From a virus (taxonomy: Duplodnaviria; Heunggongvirae; Uroviricota; Caudoviricetes): a DNA stretch of 64,000 bases. Below, piece after piece: positions 12,575-57,181 of the stretch (position 1 is the first letter of the stretch; each line of letters begins with the position of its first letter). The stretch is taken from the IMG/VR virus record IMGVR_UViG_2671180921_000012; one strand, 5' to 3'. The position numbers and the translations under genes are program-made. The notes below the pieces were generated by a model, which saw only the letters and a list, made by a program, of their open reading frames with translations, did not search any database and was not told where the DNA came from.

Positions 12575-12587
12575 CAAAAGAAAAAAA

Positions 12588-15121: not shown

Positions 15122-15144
15122 AAAAAAGCTCCCGAAGGAGCTTT
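15122..15144 (-). terminator. Rho-independent terminator ending the head/sheath operon
   Basis: AGCTCC-CGAA-GGAGCT hairpin followed on the minus strand by TTTTTT. Confidence 0.65.
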
Positions 15145-15163
15145 AAAATAAAAGGGATGACTC

Positions 15164-15673: not shown

Positions 15674-15684
15674 ATAAAATCCTT

Positions 15685-16266: not shown

Positions 16267-16301
16267 TCAAGTTAAAGGCCGGAGTTCTCCGGCCTCCTCC
16301 T

Positions 16302-17117
16302 TTAGCCAAGGCGCTTACGGCGCAGTTTCATTGACTTTTTGCGGGCAAGTTTTGCCGCGCCGGTCTGGGCTTTTCGACGCGCTTTTTTCAGCGCCGATTT
16401 TTGAGCCGCAGTCAGACGTTTTTTACGCAGGCGTTTACGGATGAGTTTGATCTCACCGTTACGAACAACCTTCTTAAATGCTTCAGTCAGCATTTCATCA
16501 GAAGTGCCAGCAACAACAAACGCCGCTTCCAGTTCGTCGCGGTCGTCGCTATCTAAACCAGCGATAGAGGCACCAACATCAGCAGCTGCGTCGTCGTCTT
16601 CATCGTCAGCCAGTGCTTCGATCAGGTCATCATCTACACCGCATGCTGCGAGGAAGTCAGCAACATTTGCCCATGCTTCGTTATAGGCATCGTCCTGTTC
16701 TTCTGTAACTTCGGAGTCGTCGTCATCAGAGATACCAGCGATAGCCTGAACGAAACCATCAAGGGAGTCGAAAGTCAGATCACCGCTATCAGCCCAGGCG
16801 AAAACGGCGTCGGCCGCATCACTCAACGCATTTTGCATAGCACTTCGATTTGCAGCTTCCAGAATCATCTGGTGCGCCTGTTCGACGGTCCATTCTTTAC
16901 CGTCTTTCCCTTCCAGGATTTGCTCAGGAGCCGGGGCAGATGGAACGTTATCGTTAGTCTGTGCCGCCGGTTCCGGATTATTATTAATAACCGGATCTGT
17001 TGGCGGTTCGGCGCTTGCTCGGGCAGACTCCATCAGCTGCACAGGATCAGAGTTCAAAGCGAAACGAGACAGTCCATTCCCCAAAAATGCCCCGGATTGA
17101 AAAAAGTTTTTGCTCAT
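16302..17117 (-). CDS. Highly acidic protein with strongly basic C-terminal tail (271 aa)
   Basis: Asp/Glu-rich body (DDDSEVTEEQDD..., ADDEDDDAAAD) and C-terminus KLIRKRLRKKRL...KLRRKRLG. Confidence 0.45.
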   Translation of the reverse strand: MSKNFFQSGAFLGNGLSRFALNSDPVQLMESARASAEPPTDPVINNNPEPAAQTNDNVPSAPAPEQILEGKDGKEWTVEQAHQMILEAANRSAMQNALSDAADAVFAWADSGDLTFDSLDGFVQAIAGISDDDDSEVTEEQDDAYNEAWANVADFLAACGVDDDLIEALADDEDDDAAADVGASIAGLDSDDRDELEAAFVVAGTSDEMLTEAFKKVVRNGEIKLIRKRLRKKRLTAAQKSALKKARRKAQTGAAKLARKKSMKLRRKRLG

Positions 17118-17126
17118 TGTATTCCC

Positions 17127-18716: not shown

Positions 18717-18776
18717 AACTTTCCCTGTTATGCGCCCCGCACGGGGGCGCTATGTTAAACGGAGAACTTCCCCTGA

Positions 18777-20483
18777 TTACTCAGAGTCACCGGCATCAAT
18801 CGTGTCGCCGCTAATGAAGTTAAGCCCGCCTTTTTTGGCCATTGTCAGCGTTACACGAGTGAAGTAATCAGCGCCGTTGCGTGGGTGCATATCGTTGATA
18901 GCCGAACCCCACAGCGTGGTACGGTTGACCAGCGCCGGAGTGGTCGGATGCTGGAACGGGATGGCCGGGACAGCATCACCAGTCACGAAGCCTGCTTTAC
19001 CCGGATTTTCATCACGGACGTAGCACAGCACATCCATCGAGCTGAACTGAATGTTCTCTGTCGTTAAGTTCTTACAAATACCAGCAGGTACTTCGTACAC
19101 TTTCACGTTACCGAACAGGGTACCGATGTAGTGAACATACGGAGTCTGGATATAGTCTTCGGCTGGCTGGAAGAAATCCTTCGGCAACTGTTTGAAGAAA
19201 GATGCTGCATCAGCACCAGCAAACATCCCCATCGCACCAGAAGATTTAACGCGCTCAATAATGTCGCGATATACAGTCTGGAATTTGCCACGAATGATGG
19301 TTGCCCATACATCAAAGGACTGGTTAACCGGCAGAGCGATGTCAAAGGTGTCGGTCGCAAGAGTACGCCAGATCATGATGCGAAGACGCAGCATATCCTG
19401 TTCATGAGACAGGTATTCCTTCAGGGTGCGGAACTGTAGGGAACCCAGGTCCAGACCAAATTCACGCTGTGCTTCATACGCCGCCTGTACCGTGTGCTCA
19501 GCCGCGATAACGAACTGGCTTGGGAACAGGGTGTATTTCTTCATTTCGTGGTTGATCAGCGGGATCAGCTCAGGAGCGGCTTCAATATTGATTTCCGTCT
19601 CAATTGCGATCTCAGTGCCTTTATCCGGCGCTTTGGAGAACGACAGGGCAATCTGACCAATGTTGTAGTTCAGAGAGCAGGTAACAGTGATTTGCTCACC
19701 AGCAGCATTAGTAAACGAGTGAAGTAGGCTGCCGGAACCGTTATCAACAACAGACTTAATACGGTTAACGTAGATATTAGTGCGACCTTTTCGGATTGGT
19801 ACATTCTGGCCTTCGAAGTCTTCCATCTTGAAGGTTGCGGTTTTGCTGGTGCCATCGGAGCTTGCCACCAGCACATAGCGGCGGCGTAACTGGCTGTACA
19901 CACCGACGGATTGCATGTCCAGAACATCACCAGCAGCATAAGAACCAAAAGAGGAACCTGCCACGTTAAAGACTTCATAGATGTCGGACTGGTCACGCGT
20001 AACCGGAATGAAGGTACACGCATCAGCGGTAGCTGCCCCCAACTGAACAGGCAGGATCATCGCGAGGAATAAAGGCAGACGCATAACACCGTCAGAAACG
20101 CTCATCATCTCTGCTGCGACGGATTCCAGCATCGCTTTATTAGTGGCATCCATGCTATTGCGGGTGGACTCAATCAGGCAGTTTTCCAGCGTCTGGTGGC
20201 AGGAGGCCAGAATTTCCGGACGCGGCATAGATTTATGTGCTGCGGCGTAGTCAGCCAGTGCACTTGCCCACGCTGTAGCGATTTGAGCGGTGGCATTATC
20301 AGAGATACCCGCAAAAACCGGGTCTTTACGTGCAGCTTCAAGGATAGATGCGGCACGCGCGGCATCATCTTTAATGAATTGGTTATCAGTACCGAACTGC
20401 GCAGTGCTTGCCCAGCCAAGCACAGCTTTAGAGCGTTTTGCGATATCTGCAATACGATTCTGGTATTCGCGTAAGTTACTCAA
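18777..20483 (-). CDS. Major head protein precursor candidate (P1 gene 23-like; ORF track 18777..20504 begins at an upstream TTG)
   Basis: 568 aa from TTG at 20483 preceded by AAGGAAG; first gene after a candidate late promoter. Confidence 0.5.
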   Translation of the reverse strand: MSNLREYQNRIADIAKRSKAVLGWASTAQFGTDNQFIKDDAARAASILEAARKDPVFAGISDNATAQIATAWASALADYAAAHKSMPRPEILASCHQTLENCLIESTRNSMDATNKAMLESVAAEMMSVSDGVMRLPLFLAMILPVQLGAATADACTFIPVTRDQSDIYEVFNVAGSSFGSYAAGDVLDMQSVGVYSQLRRRYVLVASSDGTSKTATFKMEDFEGQNVPIRKGRTNIYVNRIKSVVDNGSGSLLHSFTNAAGEQITVTCSLNYNIGQIALSFSKAPDKGTEIAIETEINIEAAPELIPLINHEMKKYTLFPSQFVIAAEHTVQAAYEAQREFGLDLGSLQFRTLKEYLSHEQDMLRLRIMIWRTLATDTFDIALPVNQSFDVWATIIRGKFQTVYRDIIERVKSSGAMGMFAGADAASFFKQLPKDFFQPAEDYIQTPYVHYIGTLFGNVKVYEVPAGICKNLTTENIQFSSMDVLCYVRDENPGKAGFVTGDAVPAIPFQHPTTPALVNRTTLWGSAINDMHPRNGADYFTRVTLTMAKKGGLNFISGDTIDAGDSE

Positions 20484-41885: not shown

Positions 41886-42464
41886 ATGTTGCGCTTTACT
41901 GAGGAAGAGTTTCAGGCTTTTAGTGAGCGTCGAAATAAGGGGCGGTCCAGGCCAAAAACCAAAAAGGATCCATTCTTATCGCTTGCGCCGGTAAAAGAAG
42001 TTTCTCCACATGCGAAGGCACTTGCAGCACTGGCAAAGAACCCAGACCTGCGCGACGGAAATTGCGAGCACTTCGAGCAGGTTTTCATTTTTGATTACTT
42101 CGAACGCAAGCACCCTGACATCTATGAGCTGTTGCATGCAACGCCTAACGGAGGGAAGCGTTCAAAAGCAACCGCCGGGAAAATGAAGGCTGAAGGGCAG
42201 AAAAAAGGTTATCCGGACATGAGTCTCGATAAAGCATGCGGTATTTATCACGGCATGCGAATTGAGCTTAAAGAACCAAATGGTAAAGCCCCGACGAAAG
42301 AGCAGATCGCCTGGATGCGCAGGCTTAGAGAGGAAGGCTACTACGTTGTTCTTGCGTATGGTGCAGAACAAGCGATTACCGCCATCCTGGAATACATAAG
42401 TCTTAAAAAGGGTGAGGCTATTGAGCATGTATTGAACGGCGATAAGTGGTTGCATGCCGCTTAA
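41886..42464 (+). CDS. VRR-NUC domain nuclease (192 aa)
   Basis: GYPDMSL...IELKEPNGKAPTKEQIAWMRRLREEGYYV (PD-(D/E)xK D...E.K arrangement). Confidence 0.55.
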   Translation: MLRFTEEEFQAFSERRNKGRSRPKTKKDPFLSLAPVKEVSPHAKALAALAKNPDLRDGNCEHFEQVFIFDYFERKHPDIYELLHATPNGGKRSKATAGKMKAEGQKKGYPDMSLDKACGIYHGMRIELKEPNGKAPTKEQIAWMRRLREEGYYVVLAYGAEQAITAILEYISLKKGEAIEHVLNGDKWLHAA

Positions 42465-42530
42465 AATAATAAATTAATTAGTGCATGTACGCTCTTTGTG
42501 GTAGTGCACTTTAACATCGGGAGAATAATC

Positions 42531-42686
42531 GTGTCATCCAAGGTTAATTATGAGTCGCTGGCATCGGTCATGCCGCGTAATGAACAGGAAACAGATGCTG
42601 TAGTGGACCCTGTAATCGCTGAAATGAATGCTCGCCTGGAGGCTGAATTTGCAGCTGAGAATGAACATACCACCCAGGGCGACTAG
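42531..42686 (+). CDS. Small acidic protein (51 aa, GTG start)
   Basis: SD GGGAG 5 nt before GTG. Confidence 0.3.
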   Translation: MSSKVNYESLASVMPRNEQETDAVVDPVIAEMNARLEAEFAAENEHTTQGD

Positions 42687-43290
42687 GACTGTTTTTTGTG
42701 TCGGTAGCGGTCCGTCACTCACTCGTGAGGACTGTGCTGCTATAGAAAAAACTGGCTGTTCAATCATCGCGGTTAACAATTCCTGGCAGATGTTCGATGA
42801 CATTTATGCCTTATACGCCGGTGATTTGTCATGGTGGAAGCAATACGGATCCACCATACCGGGAGGGAGATTCCGCAAAGTGACAGCCAACCTGGCGGCG
42901 GCGAAATCATTTTCGTTGGAGTACAGGCGATATTGTGGACCGGCGGAAGGGGTAAATAGCGGCGCGCAGGCTATCAGTCTGGCTGCTGAATCAGGGGCTG
43001 AAGTAGTGGTATTAGTCGGCTATGACTGTTCTCTGCAAAACGGCCTTCATTGGCATGGCGCGCACCCTCAAGCACTACGGAATCCAACGCAGGTGTCTAT
43101 TTCAAAATGGCAACAGCAGTTCCTGGATACCCGCAAAAAACACGCAGATTTACATATTTTGAATGCAAGTAGGAGCAGTGCAATTCAATGTTTCCCAAGA
43201 ATAAATTTAGAGGCAGTGATCGCGTTATTATCGTCGGCAGTGGCCCAAGCGCCGCAAACTTTGTTGCGCCGCGCGGAGTGCCGATTATAG
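42661..43290 (+). CDS. Paralogue A, Rossmann-like protein with N-terminal GSGPS motif (about 209 aa)
   Basis: VFCVGSGPSL...IIAVNNSW...VVLVGYDCS; paralogous to the next ORF. Confidence 0.45.
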   Translation: MNIPPRATRTVFCVGSGPSLTREDCAAIEKTGCSIIAVNNSWQMFDDIYALYAGDLSWWKQYGSTIPGGRFRKVTANLAAAKSFSLEYRRYCGPAEGVNSGAQAISLAAESGAEVVVLVGYDCSLQNGLHWHGAHPQALRNPTQVSISKWQQQFLDTRKKHADLHILNASRSSAIQCFPRINLEAVIALLSSAVAQAPQTLLRRAECRL

Positions 43291-43814
43291 CGGTCAATGG
43301 GGCCATCGACTGGCTTAACCGCGCTTCTTATTTTTTCACCCTTGATCCATCCCCAGACAATATGCGGCGCGTTGGTCGTGGCCGCCGTCGCCGTGGTGTT
43401 TGTTATTGCATGGCACTACCCGATGTTAAAGAACGTGAAGTCAGAGATGGCGTTCTGTGCTTCCGTCGTGTGGCTGAACGCGGCATGGAGCCAAAAAATA
43501 CGAATTCTCCCGAGTGGTGGGCGTGGCGCTGGTCCGCACATTTCGGCCTTTGCGAAGATGAGAATGAAATTGCCAGCGGCAATAGTGCATATGGTGCTCT
43601 GAACCTGGCTTTCCATATCGGATTCAAACATGTAGCTCTGGTGGGCGTTGACGCTACGCAAGAACTACGCGTTCACTCCGGCGGCACGCCAAAAAATCTA
43701 AGTCACCTGCCTTTGTTATTCCAGTCTGCGCGTGAACAGATTGACGTTGTTTCATGCGGGAAAATGGGAGGTATTCCGCAGATGACTCTTAAAGAATGGC
43801 TGAAGAATACATGA
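43188..43814 (+). CDS. Paralogue B, Rossmann-like protein with N-terminal GSGPS motif (208 aa)
   Basis: [13 protein letters not shown]...IIAVNGAI...VALVGVDAT; same motif order as paralogue A. Confidence 0.45.
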
Positions 43815-44488
43815 TGGCACCCACAATTTATCACCGTATCGACGGTACCAAATACAGGAATGTCTGGGTTGTTGGTGATCTGCATGGTTGCTACACCAGA
43901 CTGATGTCCGAACTCCATCGTGTGGATTTTGACCCGGCGCAGGATTTACTGATATCGGTCGGCGACCTTATCGATCGCGGTACTGAAAATGTCGAATGTC
44001 TGGAACTATTGCAGATGCCCTGGTTCAGGGCAGTGATGGGGAACCATGAGCGGCTGATGATTGATGCGTTAAGTCCAGATGGCAACGTGAATAACTGGCT
44101 AATGAATGGCGGACAATGGTTCTTCATGCTGGACACTGATCAGGAAATATTAGCCTGGGCGCTGGTGGAGCTGGTAAAGCGTCTGCCCTATATCATTGAG
44201 TTGAACACCGGGCAAGAAACTATCGTTATAGCCCATGCCGACTATCCGGATAATGAATACCAATTCGGTAAGGAGGTGCCGCTTTTCAACGTTGTCTGGG
44301 CGCGCGAGCGTATCAGTGATTCGATGGATGATATTGGTGGCGAAATTTCGGGCGCAGATCGTTTTATCTTTGGTCACACTCCGGTGAAAAGCCCGAAGAC
44401 ATTCTGGAATCAGCAGTATATCGACACTGGTGCCGTATTTTGCGGAAACCTGACATTGATGAAAGTGAAAGGTGATGGTGCAGCATGA
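43811..44488 (+). CDS. ppp: Ser/Thr protein phosphatase, lambda PPase-like (Ppp)
   Basis: Metallophosphatase motifs GDLHGC, GDLIDRG, GNHE; close to lambda phosphatase over full length. Confidence 0.85.
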
Positions 44489-45186
44489 AGATTGCTTTAG
44501 TTTTTCGCTCTGGTGGTGACTATAACGCTTCCGATGTGCAGTGGCTGGTTAATCAACTGCCAAAAGGCTATGAAATTATTTGCCTGACAGACCTGAAGCG
44601 TTTACATGTACCTGGCGTCAAAGTTGTCCCATTGATCAACCAGTGGCAAAAGTGCCGTGGCTGGTGGGCGAAAATCGAGTTGTTCCGACCGGATATAACC
44701 GATGATCTGTTCTATCTGGATTTGGACACGGTTATTGCCGGTGATATACGCCCAATCCTAGAGCATCCACCAACCAGCTTCACCATGCTTAGGGATTTTT
44801 ACCATCCACAATATCGTGGCAGCGGTGCCCTGTGGATACCAAATAGTGTTAAAGCGCATATCTGGAGTGCATTCTGGCAAGATCCGGAAGGTTGGATTTC
44901 TCGTTGTGTCACTACTGAGTGTTGGGGTGACCAGGGGTTCTTACGAAAGGTTATGGGCGATGATACACCAGCATTTCAGGATCTGTATCCAGGATGGTTT
45001 GTAAGTTACAAGGCCGATGTTGTGGAACCTGGTTCAAAATATGCGAGCGCGCGTTACTCCAGGGGGAATGGGGCATTACCAAAAGACTGCCGAATAATCT
45101 TTTTCCACGGCAAACCGCGACCTCGCGAAGTGTCAGAGGATTGGCTTCCCCTTATCAGCTCATTTTTTGAGCGAGAATCAGAATAA
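44485..45186 (+). CDS. Nucleotide-sugar transferase-like protein with DxD motif (233 aa)
   Basis: YLDLDTVI DxD-type motif; start overlaps ppp stop. Confidence 0.4.
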
Positions 45187-45187
45187 T

Positions 45188-45204
45188 ATTGCTCTAATAA
45201 TTCC
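45188..45204 (+). promoter_or_regulatory. C1 operator (ATTGCTCTAATAATTCC)
   Basis: 14/17 to consensus; paired with inverted operator at 45236-45252. Confidence 0.55.
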
Positions 45205-45212
45205 ATATTTTT

Positions 45213-45240
45213 AAAACGTGATGTACACTCATCACGTTTT
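45213..45240. terminator. Hairpin AAAACGTGATG-TACACT-CATCACGTTTT between two inverted C1 operators
   Basis: 11-bp perfect stem with A-run and T-run flanks. Confidence 0.55.
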
Positions 45241-45252
45241 TTATTAGAGCAA
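45236..45252 (-). promoter_or_regulatory. C1 operator, inverted (ATTGCTCTAATAAAAAA on minus strand)
   Basis: 14/17 to consensus. Confidence 0.5.
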
Positions 45253-45267
45253 TCTACAAGGTGCACT

Positions 45268-45486
45268 ATGTGGCCATTCCGACGGAAATATCACTACTGG
45301 CTGATCGCCTTTGTTACGCCGACCGGCGGTATCAGGCATGTCATCACCAGGTATCGCAACAAGAGACTCACCTTAGCCAGAATTTTACAGGCTGCCATAG
45401 GTGAGGGACTGGATACAAATTGCGTAGTCCTTCCTCCTTCATACTTAGGAAAAATGACCGAAGCACAAGCTAATACGGAACTTTGA
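45268..45486 (+). CDS. Hypothetical small protein (72 aa)
   Basis: First ORF after operator pair. Confidence 0.3.
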   Translation: MWPFRRKYHYWLIAFVTPTGGIRHVITRYRNKRLTLARILQAAIGEGLDTNCVVLPPSYLGKMTEAQANTEL

Positions 45487-45487
45487 A

Positions 45488-46749
45488 ATGAGCACTTCAG
45501 CACAAAACCAATCAATCGAAAATGTATGTATCCCTGATGTCCTGAATGCCGGTATCCCGGCCATTATCCAGAACATCCGGGCCGCGCAACGCCGCGTTAG
45601 TTGTGATGACCTCACAGCGCGTTTTTTTGATAATGCGGTTCAGTCAGCGGAGATGCTTCACGCACAGCTTATTGATGTTTATAACGCAGAAGCTGATAGC
45701 CATAACTCCCTGGTAGATGCAGCTGAAAATATGCAGTTGGATCTCGGTCTGAAGGGTAAAGAAATTGAAGAGCTTCAGCTGGAAATTGAACATTTGAAAC
45801 GCCAGCAACAGGACGCGATCGACGATGCGACGCATGACGCCAACCAGCGTGCTGATAATGCCGAACGTATAAGCATTGAGCTGGAAACAAAACTCAATGA
45901 AATGACCGCGATGGTTGAACTGCGGAACTCACAGATTTCAACGCTAAAATCTCAATATAAAGAGATCATGAAACTTGATCCTTTTAACCTTGAGAAACGC
46001 TATAACAAAGCTAAAAGCGAGCGACAGGAACTGCGTAAGCAGGTCGCCGACCTTAACCAACAGCTCAAAAAACTATTAAAGATGCAAGCGAGGCGCGCGT
46101 GGCATTTGCTAATAAAAAAGCAGAGGTTACCGCGCTGGTTAATGAGAATGCCAAATTTGCGACGCTCAAGAAGGAAATGTATGGCATTACTGAGCGCCGT
46201 TTCCCTGCAAGCAAACTTCATCCGACGTTAGGGCAAATCTCCTTCTTCCCGCGCCTCCTGGCTTATGGGATCTCATCGCCTAAAGAGTTCAATAACGAGC
46301 GTCCTTATATCGTTTCTAAGCTGGACTTTGCTTATCAGTTCTGCTGCGACATGGGCTATGCCATTGATATCCGAATCAACGAATGGTTGATGCCAAACTT
46401 CCAGCCGTTGGCAATTTTCCGCGAGTTCCAGCCGGAAGGTTGGGTAGAGTTCTTCCATGAATTGATCTGTAAAGAGATGGAAAGCCGCCGCCCGGAATTG
46501 GTCCGTCGAGTTGAGTGGGCGCAAGAGGTTATGTTGGCAGATACAGAGCTGCCGTTCGAACCGGAATTCATTGATGATCTGGCAACTAAAGGGTTGCATA
46601 CCCTGTTTGATGTGGTTACCCGCCGTCATGAGCAGTTGGTTGTCGAATTGGGTTTAGAGGAAACTGCGGCAAGAAGACTTCTCGATGTTTGCTATGCACG
46701 TAGCGATGCATGGGAAAAAGAGAACGGCGGCACTATTTACGTTCGCTGA
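45488..46749 (+). CDS. Coiled-coil protein encoded in two frames (frame switch near A6 tract at 46067-46072)
   Basis: Frame-2 ORF 45488-46231 turns into an Arg-rich tail after QQLKK; frame-1 ORF (open from 46057, no ATG) continues the coiled coil; -1 junction at CTCAAAAAAC. Confidence 0.45.
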
Positions 46750-46821
46750 TAGTTACAGTGTCACTTTTAATGCTGGTGGAGTGCTCCCACCAGCATTTTT
46801 TTCGTCCAATGAGGAGGGCAT

Positions 46822-47328
46822 TTGAGTATTTTCAATAAACACGCACACCAGGAACGTCCGTACATCGTCATAGTAGATATTGATGGGACGATATCAGAGG
46901 CAACGGAAGACAGACTGCATTTACTTCCACCACCTGGCAAAGGTGCATTAACAGAGCACTGGAACGAGTTTAACCTTGCCTGTGACACTGATGCTCCCAT
47001 CACTCCAGTTATTGATATGGTGCGCCAGTTGTCCGGCATTTACACCCTCTGGTTTGTAACCGGGCGCTGTGAGATAGCAAGGGATAAAACACGAGCCTGG
47101 TTGCGTAAGCACGTAACAAATGGGGCGGAGCCTTTGCTATCTATGCGTCCTGCCACCGATGACAGAAATGACGGTCCAGCAAAGATTGATCTCCTGAAGA
47201 AAATTGGTCTAAGTAAAATTGCGTTCGCGCTGGAAGATAAGATTGAAGTGGCGCGTGTTTTCAGGAGTCACGGCGTACTTACGTTAATGGTCAGGGAGTA
47301 TGAAAACGCGCTTCTCCATCAACAATAA
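46822..47328 (+). CDS. HAD-superfamily phosphatase-like protein (168 aa)
   Basis: Motif I IVIVDIDGTI (DxDGT). Confidence 0.5.
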   Translation: MSIFNKHAHQERPYIVIVDIDGTISEATEDRLHLLPPPGKGALTEHWNEFNLACDTDAPITPVIDMVRQLSGIYTLWFVTGRCEIARDKTRAWLRKHVTNGAEPLLSMRPATDDRNDGPAKIDLLKKIGLSKIAFALEDKIEVARVFRSHGVLTLMVREYENALLHQQ

Positions 47329-47344
47329 TTGCTCTAATAAATCT
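47328..47344 (+). promoter_or_regulatory. C1 operator (ATTGCTCTAATAAATCT)
   Basis: 16/17 to consensus; overlaps stop of the HAD-like gene. Confidence 0.65.
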
Positions 47345-47522
47345 TGATTTTTAAAACAGAGAAAGTGAAAATAAAAACATGCCGTAAGGCGCGGCATGTA
47401 TCCAATCAATCACAGGAGCTGAAAATATGAACACGGCATTCAAAATCATTATGGCCGCGATCTATTTCTGGCTGTTCTCTATCACTTTTGGCGGCATCGT
47501 CGCGCATGGGTAAGGGGGATGC

Positions 47523-48251
47523 ATGAAAGGCGAAGTGAAAGAGCGCGGCATGATTTTCAACGATGAGATGGTCCGAGCCATCCTCGAAGGAAGGAAAACG
47601 CAGACGCGGCGGATAATGAAAAATCAGCCTGCGGAAGTTGGTCCAGAAGCACCAGTGATGGTTAGGGAAATTGGTGCAGGTTTTCAGTGGTACGGGGCTG
47701 ATGGTGTAAGCAGTGTTTTCAATTGCCCCTTTGGTATCGTCGGCGATCGAATTTGGGTTCGTGAAACATGGGCGATATTAGGCAATGAAGATGGTTGCAG
47801 TGTGGACTGGAACGACAACCTTTGTCGTGGCGATGAGAAGAACGCAGCAAGGATTTATCGGGCCAGTTGTGAGCAAAAGCCTGGTGATTACGGTTTATGG
47901 TCGATACCCGATGATGCCGACTGGAAACCTCACACTGTGAATGAAAAGTTTGATGGTGGGTGGCGTCCATCAATTCACATGCCGCGCTGGGCATCACGCA
48001 TCCTGTTGGAAATTACCAACGTGCGCGTTGAGCGGTTGAACAATATCAGCGAATGCGATGCAAGGGATGAGGGCGTTCCGCCTGCTGGAAGTTTGCTTCC
48101 TGATCACCCGGGAACATTCCTTACTCCCAAGGGGGATTTCGCAATGGCCAAGGTTGCGTTCCAGCGCCTGTGGGAATCCATCTATGGTGAAGAAAGCTGG
48201 AACGCTAATCCCTGGGTGTGGGTAATCGAGTTTAAGCGCATTCAGGAATAA
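47523..48251 (+). CDS. ASCH/PUA-like domain phage protein (242 aa)
   Basis: N-terminus MIFNDEMVRAILEGRKTQTRRI typical of prophage ASCH-like proteins. Confidence 0.45.
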   Translation: MKGEVKERGMIFNDEMVRAILEGRKTQTRRIMKNQPAEVGPEAPVMVREIGAGFQWYGADGVSSVFNCPFGIVGDRIWVRETWAILGNEDGCSVDWNDNLCRGDEKNAARIYRASCEQKPGDYGLWSIPDDADWKPHTVNEKFDGGWRPSIHMPRWASRILLEITNVRVERLNNISECDARDEGVPPAGSLLPDHPGTFLTPKGDFAMAKVAFQRLWESIYGEESWNANPWVWVIEFKRIQE

Positions 48252-48334
48252 ACCGTGAGTATGCATCAAATCGTCAGTTTTTCAGGTGGACGAGCATCGG
48301 CCTGTCTCGTTCATCTGTTCGAATAGGTAGTGGC

Positions 48335-48538
48335 ATGACAATCGTAAAAACCCATACCGGTACCGTGATCACCAAAGATGGCCCGAAGGTAAAAAAACTG
48401 CACCAAACAGAGCGGATGTGGGTCGTTGGCAAAAACGAGTTTTACCACAAAGAAACTGGACGCCGCCATTTTGCAGAAAATACGCGCCGCCGACTGCTGT
48501 TAGACACCATCAAGCCTATCGAGGTGAAGCATGTTTAA
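48335..48538 (+). CDS. Hypothetical small protein (67 aa)
   Basis: ORF only. Confidence 0.3.
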   Translation: MTIVKTHTGTVITKDGPKVKKLHQTERMWVVGKNEFYHKETGRRHFAENTRRRLLLDTIKPIEVKHV

Positions 48539-48770
48539 ACAGAACGAAAAAGCTATCGCTCAAATTGCTGATTATATCCCGCGTGCGTGCCGGGGTATGC
48601 AGTTGCAGGAAGCCAAAGCGCGCCTGGAGAAAAAAATTGCGCTCTATATTGATGACGGCTGTGATGCCGCCGTTCTTAACGAGGCGTTCGCACCAGCTCT
48701 TAACAGTCATACTCGGGAGTCTTTTTTTTCGTGCATCGCAGCGCAACTCCACCAAGGAGGCATCCAGTGA
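48531..48770 (+). CDS. Hypothetical small protein (79 aa)
   Basis: Overlapping start with upstream ORF. Confidence 0.3.
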   Translation: MFKQNEKAIAQIADYIPRACRGMQLQEAKARLEKKIALYIDDGCDAAVLNEAFAPALNSHTRESFFSCIAAQLHQGGIQ

Positions 48771-48787
48771 GCAACCGTTTTTACATG

Positions 48788-49411
48788 ATGTGTTTGCGTG
48801 AAACTGTGGGTAATAACGCCTCATTCCATTGCCATAACGGCAATGGTTACAGTTCTGATATCGATCGCGCTCATGTTTACACGCTGGAAGAAGCCCAAAA
48901 AGCCTGGAATTGTGGGCGAGATATCGATCAGCCTGTTTGTGCCGATAGTGTGGATGCAATGGCTGTGTGGCACGTTGATTGCCAGTACATCCCTACAGAA
49001 AGCCTGATTGAGTCAGATTGCACTGCGTATGTGGCCTACAAAAAAGGTAGCTGGAACGGCAACGATGTTTACTGGCTTCAACACGGTGGATTGCCAACCG
49101 ATGACTTCAGTAAAGCAACCATCTTTAGCGTCGCCAACAAAAACGAACCAGGAATAGTTTGGTTGCCATTTTCCATTGCCGATGCAGCAAAGCGGCGGAC
49201 GTTCAATATCAATAATTTTAACCGCAGAACAATGGTTCAGGGCGCAGGTTTGGTCATGCCTGACTGGTTGAAAAAGCAAAACAGAAGAAAGAAGTCGCGA
49301 AGCGGGAAGGTGCGTTGGAATTGTCCGCATTGCGGAAAAATAACCTGGCAGTACAGCCCATATGATTTTGAAGGCTGTAGTGATTACAACTGTGAAGGAT
49401 GGCGAGAATGA
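48788..49411 (+). CDS. Cys-rich protein with C-terminal zinc ribbon (about 207 aa)
   Basis: NCPHCGK...CSDYNC motif. Confidence 0.4.
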   Translation: MCLRETVGNNASFHCHNGNGYSSDIDRAHVYTLEEAQKAWNCGRDIDQPVCADSVDAMAVWHVDCQYIPTESLIESDCTAYVAYKKGSWNGNDVYWLQHGGLPTDDFSKATIFSVANKNEPGIVWLPFSIADAAKRRTFNINNFNRRTMVQGAGLVMPDWLKKQNRRKKSRSGKVRWNCPHCGKITWQYSPYDFEGCSDYNCEGWRE

Positions 49412-50274
49412 CAATTGACTATCAGGTACTGCGTGAGGCGGCAGAAAAGGCAACACCAGACGAATGGGTCGCATTTATTTCGACGGATACTGGTACTTAT
49501 GCGGTGCACACGCCCGGTGATGAACGATGTGAAGACGTTATCAAATGGACCGGCTTTGATGGACAGAAAAATGCAGAGAACAACGCTCGTTATGTTGCCG
49601 CGTTCAACCCAAAGGTTGCACTGGAGCTGCTTGGTGAAATTAAGCGCCTGGAGGACACAAATATTGATGCTATGTGTCGAATTGCAGAGCTTGAGACTAA
49701 TCTCGCGGCGCTGGCAGCGGAGAATGCGGCGCTGAAGGCCGGGGCTATGTATTTCTCATATGGCTCTGAATTTAGTTTCGAGTGTCACAAAACTGCTGAG
49801 GAGGCTATCGCTGCTGCTGAGGCTGCAATTGACGACTATAGAGGCGATGCTTGCGATGGATGGAGCGAAGAGGTCGAAAGCATTTGCTGGGGGGTAATTA
49901 TTCAGCAGGCAACCAAGGTCGGTGAACGCAAGAAGAGGAAATGCGACAGAGTATCACCATGGATTGAAAGAGTTTGTGATTATGAGCTTCGACCTAATGT
50001 CGAAACCCCAGCCACCGATGCTTTCCTGTCTGAAATTCGTGCGGAAGCACGCAACGAGGGGATTAACTATACCGCCAGCCGTCTTGCTGCTGCGTTCAAT
50101 CACGGATTTATCAATAAGTCTTTGCGTGAAGTTTTCGACGTTACACGCATGATTTTGTCAGCGAAAGAAGAGTTGGCTAATGAAGCGCATCCGATTGATG
50201 GCCTGTCTGGTGAATATGCGGAGAAATCCCTTGAAGAATGGGCGGAACAGATTCGCAAAGGAAGCAGCCAGTGA
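49399..50274 (+). CDS. Ea22/Ead-like protein, paralogue 1 (291 aa)
   Basis: N-terminus MTIDYQVLREAAEKATP and central coiled coil; shares ATDAFL...QIRKGS C-terminal module with paralogue 2. Confidence 0.5.
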   Translation: MARMTIDYQVLREAAEKATPDEWVAFISTDTGTYAVHTPGDERCEDVIKWTGFDGQKNAENNARYVAAFNPKVALELLGEIKRLEDTNIDAMCRIAELETNLAALAAENAALKAGAMYFSYGSEFSFECHKTAEEAIAAAEAAIDDYRGDACDGWSEEVESICWGVIIQQATKVGERKKRKCDRVSPWIERVCDYELRPNVETPATDAFLSEIRAEARNEGINYTASRLAAAFNHGFINKSLREVFDVTRMILSAKEELANEAHPIDGLSGEYAEKSLEEWAEQIRKGSSQ

Positions 50275-50561
50275 ATATCGACACGACCGTAACGATCGAT
50301 ACGCTCCTAAATACCGGTCTGGCACTTCTCGGTTGGCTTTACATCATGTCCCGCACATGGCGATGGCTGGGTTCCATTTTCCTAAAACAGTGGAAAAAAC
50401 GGCGCAAACAGGAACTACGCCAGAAGGCATTAGAAGCGTTCTATGACGCATTTGAGCTTAGCCGCATTGAACCAGGTACAACAGCCAGGATAGCGACAAA
50501 AGGCGACCTGATGATAGTGATGTTCCGACAGGAGAGAGCAGAGAAAGGGGAATCAGCATGA
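50271..50561 (+). CDS. Small membrane protein (96 aa, GTG start overlapping upstream stop)
   Basis: Hydrophobic segment LLNTGLALLGWLYIM; GTGA and ATGA overlaps with neighbours. Confidence 0.35.
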   Translation: MNIDTTVTIDTLLNTGLALLGWLYIMSRTWRWLGSIFLKQWKKRRKQELRQKALEAFYDAFELSRIEPGTTARIATKGDLMIVMFRQERAEKGESA

Positions 50562-51292
50562 AATTTTCCAAATTTTCTGAGTTGGTGAATCGTATTTTGT
50601 CCAACAACCACAGCCATCGTCGCGATATGGATGTAACAATCGTTGTTCATTCGCCTGGCAGCATTGGTTCAACACCTTCAGTTGAGGTTCAGTCAATTCA
50701 CGCTGGTTTTGATTGGGATTCCGGGAAAGTGCTTATTTTCCCATCACAGCCACTGACCACGCTAACACCAGAACAGATTACTGATATCACTGATAGTGTG
50801 CGCAAAGGTCAGTCTTGGCACGCATATCAGGAATACAAGAAGCATCAAGAGCAGTTGGAAAAATTGTCGATTGAACTGGATGCCGCAAAACAGCGCATTG
50901 CAGAGCTGGAGGGTAATCGCACGGCGCTGGCAGTGGAGAATGAGCTGGCTCGTAAGGCAGTTCAGGCATTCTGCGATGTTGTTGGCGACAACACCGAGGT
51001 TATCGCTGAGGTGGTTGGGCGAGATGGCGTTCTGGTTATTTTGGAGGCCATGAAGGCAACAGGAAATATGCCAGCCACCGATGCTTTCCTGGCTGAAGTG
51101 CGGGCGCAGGGCGTGGATGCTGCTATAGAAGCTGCAAAAAATCTGGTGGCCCAAGAATATGAGTATAAGGATTTCAAAGCGGCGCAGAGTGATTGCTGTA
51201 TGCACCCTGGTTCAGACCTGGTAGGGAAGGTTGAAATGACTGAGTGGTTAGTTGACTTTGCTGCCCAGCTTCGCAAAGGAGGCAACCAGTGA
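50558..51292 (+). CDS. Ea22/Ead-like protein, paralogue 2 (244 aa)
   Basis: Coiled coil LEKLSIELDAAKQRIAELEGNRTALAVENELA and shared C-terminal module. Confidence 0.5.
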   Translation: MKFSKFSELVNRILSNNHSHRRDMDVTIVVHSPGSIGSTPSVEVQSIHAGFDWDSGKVLIFPSQPLTTLTPEQITDITDSVRKGQSWHAYQEYKKHQEQLEKLSIELDAAKQRIAELEGNRTALAVENELARKAVQAFCDVVGDNTEVIAEVVGRDGVLVILEAMKATGNMPATDAFLAEVRAQGVDAAIEAAKNLVAQEYEYKDFKAAQSDCCMHPGSDLVGKVEMTEWLVDFAAQLRKGGNQ

Positions 51293-51777
51293 GCGAAATT
51301 AATTACCAGGCACTGCGTGAGGCGGCGGAACGTGCAATTCCAGCAATGGAACGCCTGTTAATGTTGCCAGCTGATGATGATTTGTTAAGTGAACAGGAAC
51401 TTAAAGATTACGGTGTGGATATTGATGCGCTCAACGCCTTCAAATTTCTGGCCGGACCAGAAACCGTGCTGGCACTACTGGATGAACGGGAAAGGAACCA
51501 GCAATACATCAAATCCCGCGACCAGGAGAACGAGGATATTGCGCTAACGGTAGGGAAGTTGCGCGTTGAGCTTGAGGCAGAAAAACAGCGGGCAAAGGAT
51601 CTGTTTATGGAAAATGCTCGGCTTAAGTCAGGTATAGCCGGTCTGATACACCTCGGTATTCGATATGCAGATGTTGATGTCATGAAAATTGCTGGAGATG
51701 CCCAGCTTTCTACCCCATGCACTGACAGCATCATAAACAGCATTGCAACAGGCATTCGCATCAACGGAGGTGAGTAG
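51289..51777 (+). CDS. Ea22/Ead-like protein, paralogue 3 (162 aa)
   Basis: N-terminus MSEINYQALREAAERAIP matches paralogue 1 N-terminus. Confidence 0.5.
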   Translation: MSEINYQALREAAERAIPAMERLLMLPADDDLLSEQELKDYGVDIDALNAFKFLAGPETVLALLDERERNQQYIKSRDQENEDIALTVGKLRVELEAEKQRAKDLFMENARLKSGIAGLIHLGIRYADVDVMKIAGDAQLSTPCTDSIINSIATGIRINGGE

Positions 51778-52140
51778 TGCGTGTGGCATGTATTGGCTTG
51801 TTACCGTACCCGACTCGTTTTTGGGCTTCTGCGCTAATTGCAAAGCCACAGGTCCTGATGGCTGACAACATCACCCCAGCACCAAAGCGCCGCCATACCG
51901 GTATTGCAGCGGCACGACGAGCAGCAAAGAGACGCAGGAGAGCAAAGCGATGAAAAACCGTAAAGCAAAGATTCTGTTAGTTCGTAGAAACGCTCCTGGC
52001 GTCTGGCAGTGGGTGAGACTCAGCAACCGACGGATGGGGTTAATGAAACATTACGGGATGATGGATTGTGGTTTTTGCAAAAAGCCCAGCGCGGCGCAAA
52101 ACCGCTGGAAAAACCACTTGCGCACTAAAGGAGAGTGATA

Positions 52141-52655
52141 TGGCGTTAACACACCGCGAACTCTGTCAGATTGCGTACAAGTTCCTTAAGCGCAACGGGT
52201 TCAAGGTTTGTTTTCATGACCGCTTTATAGCTGTAACCAGTACCGGAGAACAGCCAGATGCTATGGGATTCAGAAATTCAGCATCATGCCTGATAGAGGC
52301 GAAATGTTCTCGTGCTGACTTGTTGGCAGATAGAAAAAAGCGTTTTCGTAAAAATCCGTCTCTTGGAATGGGCGACTGGCGATTCTTTATTAGTGAGCCG
52401 GGAATTATTTCAATTGAGGATTTACCACCTGGCTGGGGATTACTTCACGTTGTTAACGGAAGAGTACGGAAAGTACATGGGTGGCCCAAGGGTAATTGCT
52501 GTTGGGGTAATCCTGACGATAAGCCATTTACTGGAAATAAGCAGGTTGAATGCGATTACATGTTATCTGCATTAAGGCGTATGGAGTTGAGAGGGCACCT
52601 TAATGAAATATATGACGGTGTAATTGTTAATAAGAAAGAAGGAAACGCGGCATGA
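52141..52655 (+). CDS. PD-(D/E)xK-like protein (ORF track starts 52068; 171 aa from ATG 52141)
   Basis: DAMGF...LIEAKCSRADL arrangement suggests a restriction-endonuclease-like fold. Confidence 0.35.
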
Positions 52656-53038
52656 TCACTATTACCAAAGAGCGACTGCTGACAATCAAGCAGTGGCGCG
52701 AAACATACGGACCTGGTAGCAACGTTGTACTGCCAGCAGAAGAAGCGGAAGAACTGGCACGGATTGCGCTGGCATCGCTGGAAGCAAAACCAATAGGTGC
52801 TTTCCACATTGCAGAACAGCAGGTCGATGGCACAAGTGACTACATCAAGGATGGGGAGTGGCCTATTGATAATGGAATTATTGAGGTCTACGCCGCTCCA
52901 CCCGTTCCAGTAGTACCGGAAGAAAAACCAATGCCTAATCCTCTTAGCATGTACGCGGTTGATGCTGTTGCCGCTATTGCAGAGGTGAGAGGCTGGAACG
53001 CCTGCCGCGCTGCAATGCTTCAGGGAAAAGGAGAGTGA
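52652..53038 (+). CDS. Hypothetical protein sharing ELARIALASLEA motif with the DUF551-like gene (128 aa)
   Basis: ATGA overlap with upstream gene. Confidence 0.35.
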   Translation: MITITKERLLTIKQWRETYGPGSNVVLPAEEAEELARIALASLEAKPIGAFHIAEQQVDGTSDYIKDGEWPIDNGIIEVYAAPPVPVVPEEKPMPNPLSMYAVDAVAAIAEVRGWNACRAAMLQGKGE

Positions 53039-53039
53039 T

Positions 53040-53249
53040 ATGGCTATTGCCGCAAGTTACACAATGCATCTCTATTGTGACTGCCGCCAGTGTACGGAAG
53101 GTGTATATCCAGTGCCAGACTTCGGTGAGTATATAGGTACGTCATGGGCTGGCTGTGCAAAAGAGGCGCGCAAGGATGGCTGGCGAATAAGCAAAGACAA
53201 AACGCGTGCTTTTGCGCCTGGGCATAAAGTTTTGAGGATTAACAAATGA
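53040..53249 (+). CDS. Small Cys-rich protein (69 aa)
   Basis: CDCRQCTEG motif. Confidence 0.3.
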   Translation: MAIAASYTMHLYCDCRQCTEGVYPVPDFGEYIGTSWAGCAKEARKDGWRISKDKTRAFAPGHKVLRINK

Positions 53250-54193
53250 CCACTATTACCAGAGAACAAGCTCTGAAAATTATTGAGGCAGCCGATGAGG
53301 TTATTAGTGCGCTGGCCGGAACTAACGAGGATGTTCACCCTGGTAGCGATAACATGCTACGCCTGTGGGATGACCTGAATGACCGTTACGCGCCGCCGGA
53401 AATTGTGCGTGAACTGGCACGGATTGTGCTGGCATCGCTGGAAGCCGAGCCTGTTCTGTATCAGTCCTGCACTCGCCCCACCTGGAATAGCGGTGTTCCG
53501 TGGACGGAATGGAAAGAACGAAGTCGTGAGTGCTACGAAGACGATTTGCGCTTTACAGACACGCCTGACCATGCCGGTTGGATATACAAATGTCGAAAAC
53601 TATATACCACTCCGCCAGCGCCGATAGCGTTAGAGGCCATTGAAAACGCAATTGAATACATCCGCAGTATCGCTTTTCACATCGATGAAGACGATTACCA
53701 CGGCAAACATATTGCGTATTTCATGCAGCAAGCATTGGCCTGGCTGGAAGGGCATTCATGCAGCGACGACAGACTGGGTAAAGCCGAGAATCAACCAGTA
53801 CGCGGCAACCAGGCTGCCGAATCCAATCGCGATAATGAGTGGACTGGCAATCCTGATATTGATAACGCCATCATCATGCTCGACCGCATAGATACGCTGG
53901 AAAATTGCGATGATGACCGTATTGAGGCTGTTAAGGCTGTTTTGCGTAGACTGGCTGGCAACTATCCGGTAATTCCGGATGGTTGGATAAGCTGTAGTGA
54001 GCGAATGCCTGAGAACATTCCCGGAAGTTGTAAAGAGTATCTGGTGTTTGATGGGCTTAATAATAAAGTTCATCACGATTACTGGGTTGTCCCTGATGGA
54101 GACAGTGCGCCAGTTGCGTCGTTCTGGAATCATTACGGGGCACATGTAACTCACTGGATGCCTCTACCAGAACCGCCGCAGGAGGCGAAATGA
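53246..54193 (+). CDS. Protein with C-terminal DUF551-like module (315 aa)
   Basis: C-terminal ...FWNHYGAHVTHWMPLPEPP resembles the DUF551 signature. Confidence 0.4.
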   Translation: MTTITREQALKIIEAADEVISALAGTNEDVHPGSDNMLRLWDDLNDRYAPPEIVRELARIVLASLEAEPVLYQSCTRPTWNSGVPWTEWKERSRECYEDDLRFTDTPDHAGWIYKCRKLYTTPPAPIALEAIENAIEYIRSIAFHIDEDDYHGKHIAYFMQQALAWLEGHSCSDDRLGKAENQPVRGNQAAESNRDNEWTGNPDIDNAIIMLDRIDTLENCDDDRIEAVKAVLRRLAGNYPVIPDGWISCSERMPENIPGSCKEYLVFDGLNNKVHHDYWVVPDGDSAPVASFWNHYGAHVTHWMPLPEPPQEAK

Positions 54194-54450
54194 TGGATGT
54201 AAAAGAGAAGGTTTTGCAGGTGATGCGTTCCCGGGCTGCCCTGCAAGATAAAGCTCTCGGCGGGAAATATCCATTCAGGATGGCAACCTGGAATCTGCGG
54301 TTGGCAATGGAGAAGGAATTTCCTGATGAAGAATGGCGTTCGGCAGATTTGCGCAAAATTCTTATGGAGATGGCTAAAGATGGAACAGTATCCAAAGATA
54401 CCCATGCCAGCCGGATTGGTCAGGCGGTATGGAGACTGGAGGTGAGGTAA
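54190..54450 (+). CDS. Hypothetical small protein (86 aa)
   Basis: ATGA overlap with upstream gene. Confidence 0.3.
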   Translation: MMDVKEKVLQVMRSRAALQDKALGGKYPFRMATWNLRLAMEKEFPDEEWRSADLRKILMEMAKDGTVSKDTHASRIGQAVWRLEVR

Positions 54451-54526
54451 TAAGCTGGCCTGAAGCATTTGCGATTGTAGGCGTAGCTATGGCGATTGCC
54501 GCTATTTTTATCTTCTGGGGGTAACG

Positions 54527-54760
54527 ATGGGAAAATTAACTTTTGTAGTCGAATTTGAGGATGGCAAAGAGCCACCTGTTAGCGCCAATCTTGATGTTGC
54601 TGGTGGCAGGCTGGTTTCGGTTCTATTTGGTGATTACCGCGACGACTTCTTTCAGCCTGAAGAAGTTGATGTAGTGCGAGAAGCATTAAACGAGCTAAGT
54701 GTTGATAACGATGATGCTCATGCGGAAATCATCAAAAAAATGGAACTGCTAACTCACTAA
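54527..54760 (+). CDS. Hypothetical small acidic protein (77 aa)
   Basis: ORF only. Confidence 0.3.
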   Translation: MGKLTFVVEFEDGKEPPVSANLDVAGGRLVSVLFGDYRDDFFQPEEVDVVREALNELSVDNDDAHAEIIKKMELLTH

Positions 54761-54938
54761 ATTATCAATTATGGTGCTATCACCTACGACACCGAGAGAA
54801 AATTTATAATGTCAAAAGTAAATGTTTTGATTTTTTCAGCAATTGTTGGCTTTGGTTTTACTGCCGGAGTGCAGATTTATATTACGTGGGAAAAAATCAT
54901 CAACTACGCATGGAGTTGTTTTATTAAGTGAGGTAAGT

Positions 54939-55232
54939 ATGTGGAGAGGTAATAATCATGGCAAAAGCCAGATGATACTTACCGAATATAAGCTAGACCA
55001 CAAAACCAATAAATCACGCTCAGTATATTTGCTCCGGCACAATAGCCGCGTAAGAAATACCGTGCTGGAACAAAATCTGACAGTTGAAATGGATAATTGC
55101 GGGGGATTCAAGCCAACAATTTCGCTTGATGATTTTCCTCGTGGTTTAAGCGAAAGAGAAGCAATGCTGAAATTAGCAGAATGGCTACAAAGATTAAGCA
55201 TTGCTATTGAAGATAACTGGTCTGAACCTTAA
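54939..55232 (+). CDS. Hypothetical protein (98 aa; ORF track starts 54843)
   Basis: SD GAGGTAAG before ATG 54939. Confidence 0.3.
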   Translation: MWRGNNHGKSQMILTEYKLDHKTNKSRSVYLLRHNSRVRNTVLEQNLTVEMDNCGGFKPTISLDDFPRGLSEREAMLKLAEWLQRLSIAIEDNWSEP

Positions 55233-55466
55233 ATTTATATGATGACACTAAAACATTTTCTTGACCGCCCATTATGGGCGGCAGCCGCAGGCTATGACTT
55301 TAATTATATGGATTGCATGTCTTGTACTGCCAATGCATACGACCATTCGTTCATCCTGCTGTTTAATTCTTTAAGAATATTGCCGGAAACAGTATTTCTT
55401 AGGTGATGGAATGACTGATATTGCCAAAATGAACATTGAAGAATGGACTAAGGAATGTGAAAAGAA

Positions 55467-56090
55467 ATGGCGCAAAAAGAAATGACCAGAATCACTGAAG
55501 AGCGCATATCAGAGATTATTTCCCGTATCGAAATGTATGGTCACGGTGCTGGATATACGGCAGATGAAGTATTGGAAATAGCCCAGCAGATGCTGGCCTT
55601 GAGACAAAAAGAGCAACATGAAAGCAATACGTGTAGATTGAATTTTGAGCAGTGGCTGGAACAGCAACGCGGGAAAATCGATGTGGACTGTGGTTGTGTG
55701 TCCACTGAAACATTCATGCACTGGCTGCGGGTAGCTTACGAGGCTGGCAACTATCCGGATATTCCGGATAGTTCGGCGCAAGCACCAGGGAAGGGGGGCT
55801 TCCCCGGAGAGCGGATTCGAATTAAGCCGCATGTTTACCGTGAACTGGTTAACCGCCTCCACGATACAGCGATCAAGTGTGCTGGCACCCAGCAATTACG
55901 GGAAAGAATTAGCCGCGTTTTGGGCGAAGTTATTACACCAGATCGTCATAAACAAGCCGAGAAAAGCGGTCTGGAAAGGAGTCATCTTGAAGCGGCATTA
56001 AACATTAAACCGGGGCATACGCTAGGTGTCATTGATGCCATGTTGGTTCATGAAATGGCTAAGGCGTTATTGCCACTGGAGGCTGATTAA
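55467..56090 (+). CDS. Hypothetical protein (207 aa)
   Basis: ORF only. Confidence 0.35.
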   Translation: MAQKEMTRITEERISEIISRIEMYGHGAGYTADEVLEIAQQMLALRQKEQHESNTCRLNFEQWLEQQRGKIDVDCGCVSTETFMHWLRVAYEAGNYPDIPDSSAQAPGKGGFPGERIRIKPHVYRELVNRLHDTAIKCAGTQQLRERISRVLGEVITPDRHKQAEKSGLERSHLEAALNIKPGHTLGVIDAMLVHEMAKALLPLEAD

Positions 56091-56153
56091 ATTCCGGATA
56101 AAGCTGATATCTGATCACCATGCTAAAATCCCCTCAATTCACAGAGGGGATTT

Positions 56154-56426
56154 TTGTATATGTTGCGTAGATTTTTAGGTAAAAGCGTTATTGTCGGTGC
56201 GATGTTGGCTATGTCTGGGTGTGCTATGGTGCAATACAATGACGGAGAAAAGGTTAGCATCCAGTCAGATGGTTGGTATGGCCTGGATAGCCTGCAAAAA
56301 ACAGCGGATAAAGCCTGCCAGCAATACGGAAAGTCTAAAGCCGTATATCAGCATAGCGCGAACGCTAACCCTCATCTTGCGCCCGGTTCGGGTGTTCAGA
56401 ATACCATCTGGAAATGTGAGCCTTAA
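56154..56426 (+). CDS. Small lipoprotein (90 aa)
   Basis: Lipobox AMLAMSGC. Confidence 0.45.
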
Positions 56427-56428
56427 AC

Positions 56429-56677
56429 ATGAGCGACTGGAATATTGCAGCCAAAAGTCAGGAAGAACGGGATAAGGTTAACGTAGATCTGGCTGCCAGC
56501 GGTGTGGCGTACAAAGAGCGATTGAACATACCAGTCATAGCGGAACAGGTGGCCAGGGAACAACCTGAGCACTTGCGTGCATATTTCATGGAAAGACTAC
56601 GTTATTACCGCGAGCAGAGCGTGAAACTACCAAAAGGAAGTGATCCGGTATATCAAAAGGCAGATCCACAAAAATAA
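56429..56677 (+). CDS. hot: Hot, homologue of DNA polymerase III theta subunit (82 aa)
   Basis: [43 protein letters not shown] parallels E. coli HolE. Confidence 0.8.
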
Positions 56678-56788
56678 GCCTTTTCAATAAGCTATATCAC
56701 CACCAGCTAAAAAATACATTCTGACTTGCATGAAATGCGCCCTTTAGCGATATACTGTATATAAACACAGTATTTAGGAGGGCGTATA

Positions 56789-57181
56789 ATGGGATTCCCA
56801 TCACCAGCAGCCGATTTTGCTGAAAGCAGAATTTCGCTTGACGCACAATTCATCAAACGACCAACCGCAACATATTTCATGCGGGCCGCCTGCTCACATC
56901 TCCGTGAGGGGATTTTGCAAGGTGCAATGCTGGTGGTTGATTCATCTCTTCCACCACTGGATGGTTCTCTACTCATATGTGCCGTAGAGGGAGAATTTCG
57001 CGTAAAGCGATACCGCAAGCATCCTCGCCCACACCTTGAGGATCTGGAAAGCGGAAGACGTGAGTCACTGCCAGATGATGATGACAGCAGCTATTCCGGG
57101 AGTCAGGCCATATTCGGGGTAATCACATACATCATTAACGATGCCAGGAGTGGGGAATTTGATGATTGCCCGGTGATTTAA
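56789..57181 (+). CDS. humD: HumD, UmuD'-like protein (130 aa)
   Basis: Starts GFPSPAADFAE...ATYFMRA as processed UmuD'; S24 peptidase-like body. Confidence 0.8.
   Translation: MGFPSPAADFAESRISLDAQFIKRPTATYFMRAACSHLREGILQGAMLVVDSSLPPLDGSLLICAVEGEFRVKRYRKHPRPHLEDLESGRRESLPDDDDSSYSGSQAIFGVITYIINDARSGEFDDCPVI

Follow-up and report, generated by a model that had tools for sequence, protein, structure and literature searches.

A pmgS gene split at a six-adenine tract in a P1-like phage-plasmid of Escherichia coli: most likely a recent frameshift allele, and not a recoding site

Does a coiled-coil gene that changes reading frame at a run of six adenines (A6) use a programmed recoding site, carry a genuine frameshift mutation, or merely reflect a homopolymer sequencing error? 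The question is raised by the IMG/VR record IMGVR_UViG_2671180921_000012, of which a stretch of 64,000 nucleotides was analyzed here (hereafter, the window). The first-pass annotation of this DNA had described one coiled-coil gene distributed over two frames at the A6 tract, leaving the three explanations side by side. The map of open reading frames (ORFs) and the match of the repaired protein to PmgS agree with that description, and the features of the locus are collected in Table 1.

Table 1. Coordinates of the pmgR-pmgS operon and of the split pmgS gene (positions are those of the window)
Feature	Position	Strand	Remarks
OpmgRa, C1-controlled operator	45188-45204		Position transferred from the P1 annotation
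PpmgR, predicted sigma-70 promoter of the pmgR-pmgS operon	45189-45217		Flanked by OpmgRa and OpmgRb; position transferred from the P1 annotation
OpmgRb, C1-controlled operator	45237-45253	-	Position transferred from the P1 annotation
pmgR, intact, upstream gene of the operon	45268-45486	+	72 aa; corresponds to P1 pmgR 82232-82450
pmgS, 5' part	45488-46072	+	Frame 2, 195 native codons; N-terminal region plus the greater part of the coiled coil; ends in Lys-Lys
A6 tract, site of the lesion	46067-46072	+	CTCAAAAAAC at 46064-46073; exactly six A
Out-of-frame tail	46073-46231	+	52 missense codons, then stop at 46229-46231
pmgS, 3' part	46072-46749	+	Frame 1, native codons 196-420 (rest of the coiled coil and C-terminal domain of ~190 aa); stop at 46747-46749
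Intrinsic-terminator-like hairpin and T-run, end of the operon	46769-46803	+	11-bp stem; consensus scan

Read from its ATG, the frame-2 ORF (45488-46231) encodes 247 aa, and the residues following Lys-Lys (LLKMQARRAWHLLIKKQRLPRWLMRMPNLRRSRRKCMALLSAVSLQANFIRR) include Arg at 11 of 52 positions (21%, counted by hand). This tail has no counterpart in the PmgS protein of phage P1, in keeping with the Arg-rich stretch that had been singled out as implausible right after the A-run. Frame 1 is open from 46057 to its stop codon and, as had also been remarked, lacks an ATG at its beginning, the earliest one in frame being located at about 46177. A GTG at 46099, which went unmentioned in that annotation, lies five bases 3' of a GAGG motif (46090-46093) and would give a C-terminal fragment of 216 aa; it represents a possible, fortuitous candidate for an internal start. 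The continuation of the coiled coil, together with a further domain, that had been read in frame 1 corresponds to the native C-terminal codons of PmgS listed in Table 1. Insertion of a single A yields a protein of 420 aa reading ...QQLKKTIKDASEAR..., which is the sequence found in P1 (...QQLKKTIKD...), and the disrupted region spans 1262 bases in the window vs. 1263 nt in the intact coding sequence (CDS).

Judged from its sequence, the window belongs to a P1-like E. coli phage-plasmid; the split gene is pmgS (named shtB in phage P7). The window is collinear with the ~37.1-94.8 kb region of P1, with a few segments replaced. A megablast search against a phage collection found pmgS/shtB in 19 records at 98.5-99.4% nucleotide identity, the match extending over 1263 bases in 18 of them and over 1261 in phage 813R1; a single 1263-nt CDS of 420 aa is annotated in P1, JL22, and P7, and a single-chain protein of 420 aa is also present in SJ46. 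Native PmgS is one chain of 420 aa, in which a coiled coil occupies the center, between an N-terminal region and a C-terminal domain. The repaired protein shows 99% identity to P1 PmgS, and the 5' part is by itself 99% identical to residues 1-195. Furthermore, residues 1-420 of the repaired protein align with positions 1-403 (of 405) of PHROG 1660, a family named “PmgS-like head morphogenesis” (E = 5.6e-195), in a match that crosses the frame junction once one A is restored; the split is therefore not a chance juxtaposition of two frames. Searches of the repaired protein against Pfam, NCBIfam, and PDB sequences returned only sub-threshold coiled-coil noise (TPR, SMC, Rad50, keratin, L29), and a single-sequence AlphaFold2 model of the 216-aa C-terminal fragment was unusable (mean pLDDT 38.8, pTM 0.24).

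The surroundings of the gene are those of its relatives. The segment 45180-45290 is 100% identical over 111 nt to positions 82144-82254 of P1 (NC_005856), and the gene is preceded by pmgR and the C1 operators Op86a/b and followed by pap. The window gene shares with P1 pmgS (P1_gp093, YP_006559.1) and P7 shtB (AAQ07558.1) a 99% identity at both the nucleotide and the protein level, the pmgR-pmgS-pap synteny, identical C1 operators and promoter, and the same stop codon and terminator. It differs from them in being one A short of their seven-adenine tract (A7), which turns the 420-codon ORF into a 247-aa ORF plus an orphan 3' frame. In this sense, the end-to-end family match and the genomic context are both present, whereas the single ORF of ~420 codons is missing, and the window gene is a disrupted allele of the PmgS/ShtB family, not an intact member of it. 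Downstream of the operon, one of the A6-carrying contigs found in this study (SRR31140449_316, from the Logan set of contigs assembled from public sequencing runs) presents hsdR (type I restriction, 1038 aa) and an hsdS fragment directly after pap (positions 8106-11628 of the contig). The P1 annotation reports similarity to EcoDXXI and R124 hsd flanks at that same site, and this post-pap position looks like a recombination hot-spot.

Several of the segments of the window that differ from P1 can be described from the annotation of plasmid pA16EC0618-5 (CP088846.1). A stretch of ~8.5 kb (48217-56789) has no P1 counterpart and stands in place of P1 pmgT-hot, carrying small genes of lambdoid type (ead/Ea22-like, DUF4752, DUF551, eaa). 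The replicon region (~23022-25268) is unlike that of P1: its replication initiator (~24194-25078) is a different one, and a gene for a GIY-YIG nuclease lies on the minus strand (~23230-23901). Besides, a gene for an SPFH-domain protein (33114-33941) occupies the P1 tciA-C position, and a type I toxin gene of the hokD type (~14892-15047) is located at the position of P1 rlfA/rlfB, where the alignment with P1 breaks (14428-15122).

The two-frame arrangement is not found in orthologues of the gene. In an alignment with P1, P7, JL22, and 813R1, A6 vs. A7 at the tract is the only length difference; the A7 of P1 reads AAA AAA ACT (Lys-Lys-Thr), and A7 is also present in SJ46, CP088846.1, and CP090076.1. 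The divergent orthologue of Cronobacter phage JK004 (69% identity) is a contiguous ORF of 420 aa whose tract reads AAA AAA CAC, and the homologue of Pseudomonas phage 15b, only 24% identical, aligns in one piece across the junction (residues 114-411). A census with a 52-nt probe carrying A6 found this length in none of 561 E. coli RefSeq records containing the locus, all of which matched over 53 nt, and in 1 of 568 PLSDB plasmids (CP121349.1). A6 was present in a single IMG/VR contig, vs. at least 119 contigs with A7, and A8 was not found in that database. Among contigs of species-representative genomes two matches were obtained, both A7, and a metagenome collection, searched with the A6 pattern alone, yielded one contig. 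The share of A6 in complete plasmid records is about 0.2% or less. About 1,100 plasmid records have A7 and an uninterrupted 420-aa ORF, the A6 arrangement is essentially absent from more than 1,100 orthologous records, and only a handful of public sequences depart from A7.

These data bear directly on the possibility of programmed recoding, according to which A6 would be a site of -1 ribosomal frameshifting or transcriptional slippage, from which a short coiled-coil protein would be made alongside the full-length fusion, as in dnaX or the phage tail chaperone G/GT. The likeness to those systems is an A-rich Lys tract (A AAA AAG in dnaX) at a junction of two frames which a -1 shift would join. 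In the window, the shift needed is indeed -1, it would regenerate the wild-type ...KKTIKD exactly, and the two halves are both still open. In addition, tRNA-Lys of E. coli is prone to slip on A-runs, and the next zero-frame codon, CUA, is rare. Unlike in dnaX and G/GT, however, the split is not conserved, each A6 carrier is matched by an A7 twin, and the divergent JK004 orthologue is contiguous. The zero-frame codons CTC AAA AAA CTA give the heptamer C AAA AAA in place of a canonical X XXY YYZ, and its first position bars re-pairing in the P site during a tandem slip. Stimulatory elements, expected as an SD-like motif some 10 nt before the tract or a stable fold 5-9 nt after it, were not apparent either: no SD-like (GGAGG-like) sequence was seen in 46040-46066, the ~25 nt upstream of the tract, and a single hairpin lies downstream, which begins 20 nt past the tract, at 46093, and lacks significant stability (z = -1.26; 23 of 200 shuffled sequences were at least as stable). 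With respect to transcriptional slippage, the characterized bacterial cases need about nine or more consecutive A or T, and a run of six is too short to be efficient. We consequently give this explanation hardly any weight. Comparison with orthologues, which the first-pass annotation had proposed as a check, returns a single contiguous 420-aa ORF, JK004 included, and thus rules out a programmed two-frame gene; the -1 slippage put forward in that annotation is refuted by P1, P7, JL22, SJ46, and ~1,100 plasmid records with A7 and one ORF. The A6 tract is not a programmed recoding site.

The comparison then falls between a real mutation and an error. According to the latter, the true sequence would be A7 with an intact pmgS, one A having been dropped in base-calling, assembly or polishing. 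Single-base contractions of homopolymers are the commonest class of error in long-read assemblies, and every nearly identical plasmid has A7. The nearly isogenic backbone of pA16EC0618-5 (CP088846.1; pmgS UGK19935.1), from an E. coli blood isolate, is 99.907% identical over 44 kb, with A7 and an intact 1263-nt pmgS CDS. Against window positions 20000-64000 it shows 40 substitutions and exactly one indel, which is that of the pmgS A-run. The remainder of the comparison argues against an error-prone window. The 44 kb common to both contains 60 homopolymer runs of at least six bases in the window and 61 in CP088846.1, with no other alignment gap; the alignment is gap-free in 12047-20883, and 1-9479 presents just a clustered 30-nt difference, located in a divergent stretch. 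Three independent relatives (L081, L022, and L011) show no indel with respect to the window apart from the pmgS A-run, matching it at each other homopolymer, and the isolated single-base differences between the window and P1 lie in intergenic DNA. Scattered homopolymer indels, as an artefact would leave them, are not seen.

Furthermore, A6 is reproduced in assemblies made from reads. The exact 247-aa frameshift product is among the called proteins of four Logan contigs. The contig of run ERR2777517, a k-mer assembly, equals window 39488-51292 at 100.000% over 11,805 nt, A6 included, although this run may share the isolate, or even the read set, with the window and is perhaps not fully independent. 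The other three contigs have different backbones and carry no other homopolymer indels, so that clean contigs of other runs, besides one from a metagenome, also have A6. Since the read-based assembly reproduces A6 and the window is otherwise clean, a real mutation is favored over a consensus error.

One record indicates that artefacts, too, can shorten the tract. CP121349.1 (an unannotated PLSDB plasmid, 99.06% identical to the window with 149 mismatches) has the same A6 beside at least 16 other single-base homopolymer contractions in ~22 kb (its positions 3916-43967 vs. window 25181-48245); it resembles a long-read assembly that was never polished, and the A6 in its pmgS is probably one of the errors. 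The sequences L009 and L130, 98.4% and 97.9% identical to the window, respectively, were discarded, like CP121349.1, as the origin of the window. Homopolymer artefacts are also seen in other records that contain this gene, namely CP090076.1, 813R1 (at a T7 tract) and the IMG/VR contig IMGVR_UViG_2645727715_000003 (L080). The last of these was dropped as evidence for A7: it shows 12 homopolymer indels, mostly expansions, and 0 substitutions with respect to window 40297-47380. Probably the contig comes from the plasmid lineage of the window, read with a chemistry prone to error, and its A7 is untrustworthy either way. CP090076.1 shows eight indels vs. window 25079-64000, seven of which (six of a single base, and one of three bases at 41204) are situated at 35209, 40208, 41204, 43206, 47208, and 56705; this spacing near multiples of ~1000 nt suggests that a polishing tool left artefacts at chunk boundaries. 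Weighing both sides, we regard a sequencing or consensus error as unlikely, retaining a minor share of the probability, and an ordinary inactivating frameshift allele of pmgS, most likely a real and recent mutation, as the explanation in which we have good confidence. Of the two options that had been left standing next to recoding, the genuine mutation is accordingly preferred on the strength of the clean window and of the A6 in ERR2777517.

The distribution of A6 among haplotypes is informative on its history. The seven usable A6 carriers fall on at least five different haplotypes (defined over ±500 nt), three of which are common to A7 sequences with identical 1-kb flanks. The four A6 carriers included in a distance tree (87 segments, ~2 kb each) are polyphyletic, and each lies 0-3 substitutions from an A7 neighbor. 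The presence of A6 on at least five haplotypes, three of them with an A7 sequence of identical flanks, means that the loss of one A recurs, that it is recent, and that it has never become fixed. On several independent and recent occasions A6 has arisen, or has been mis-called, and no diversified lineage has descended from it; such a pattern marks a mutational hot-spot on which purifying selection acts. An independent contraction on at least five haplotypes, in a gene dispensable in the laboratory, might also be expected of a phase-variable contingency locus, in which the A-tract would switch PmgS on and off in populations of P1-like plasmids. However, rather than both lengths being common and expansions occurring too, the OFF length is very rare (0/561 and 1/568 in the census), A8 is unseen in IMG/VR, and the A6 lineages have not diversified. 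The observed rate is what weak selection on the gene and an ordinary hot-spot of homopolymer mutation would produce, and a tract of 7 nt is short for a contingency locus. We regard such a switch as extremely improbable.

The A-tract is not the only site at which pmgS is found altered. The gene contains a second 7-nt homopolymer, a T7 tract at window 45622-45628, which is reduced to T5 in phage 813R1 (ON470617.2, L003), where the gene is consequently annotated as two separate “hypothetical proteins,” and to T6 in L080. A terminator-like hairpin (45600-45618) lies, probably by chance, directly 5' of the T7 within the coding sequence. Public E. coli assemblies contain further shortened forms of PmgS (proteins P0003, P0005, and P0015, from the cluster of window 45488-46228): P0003 has 295 aa and is present on 35 contigs, one of them of 5.57 Mb, and P0015 has 297 aa and is fused to unrelated sequence past residue ~270. 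Broadly, the broken forms of pmgS (ON470617.2/813R1, CP121349.1, P0003, and P0015) resemble the window allele in that the same gene is affected by small lesions, often at homopolymers. They differ from it in that 813R1 is broken at T7, CP121349.1 is error-ridden, and P0015 is fused to unrelated sequence. The shortened and fused forms in public assemblies imply that the gene is disrupted in several ways in nature. The T7 and A7 (46067-46073) tracts of pmgS have been repeatedly altered in public records, by real mutation and by sequencing error.

From these comparisons we infer that A6 is the real base sequence, and that the frameshift allele arose through slipped-strand mispairing during replication, the usual cause of such contractions, which would remove one A from A7. 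The operon would still be transcribed from its intact C1-controlled promoter. Translation would leave the native frame after Lys-Lys (about residue 195-196) and add 52 missense residues, the resulting product of 247 aa being devoid of the end of the coiled coil and of the whole C-terminal domain. The allele would thereby be one of loss of function, as predicted from the coding sequence. The 3' half would have remained open owing to the very recent origin of the lesion. Full-length PmgS could be made from A6 only via low-level spontaneous -1 slippage, with the P-site tRNA-Lys moving from AAA to AAA before CUA. On this basis, A6 might alternatively be a hypomorph, providing a few percent of wild-type PmgS by slippage, or acting through the GTG 46099 fragment, which would contribute the C-terminal domain in trans, and the change from A7 to A6 would then be a low-frequency dosage switch; we consider this quite improbable.

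The allele would be tolerated because pmgS is dispensable for lytic growth and plasmid maintenance, and A6 would not persist in the population, in which nearly all copies have A7 and a full-length gene. P1 does not need pmgS for lytic growth, as observed both by CRISPRi (efficiency of plating, 1.2) and by deletion (PMC10695390). On the other hand, pmgS is among the genes always found at full P1 length in a survey of 77 P1-like phage-plasmids (PMC9603915). The main text of Gonzales et al. (2022; PMC9024508) is silent on pmgS, the gene being shown in a figure only.

In terms of annotation, the locus is a frameshift allele of an already known gene. A single frameshifted pmgS should be recorded here, labeled as a pseudogene or as “frameshifted; internal stop,” and neither two hypothetical proteins nor a recoding candidate. 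From the biological point of view, the full-length retention of a laboratory-dispensable gene in almost all natural P1-like plasmids implies a selected function for PmgS.
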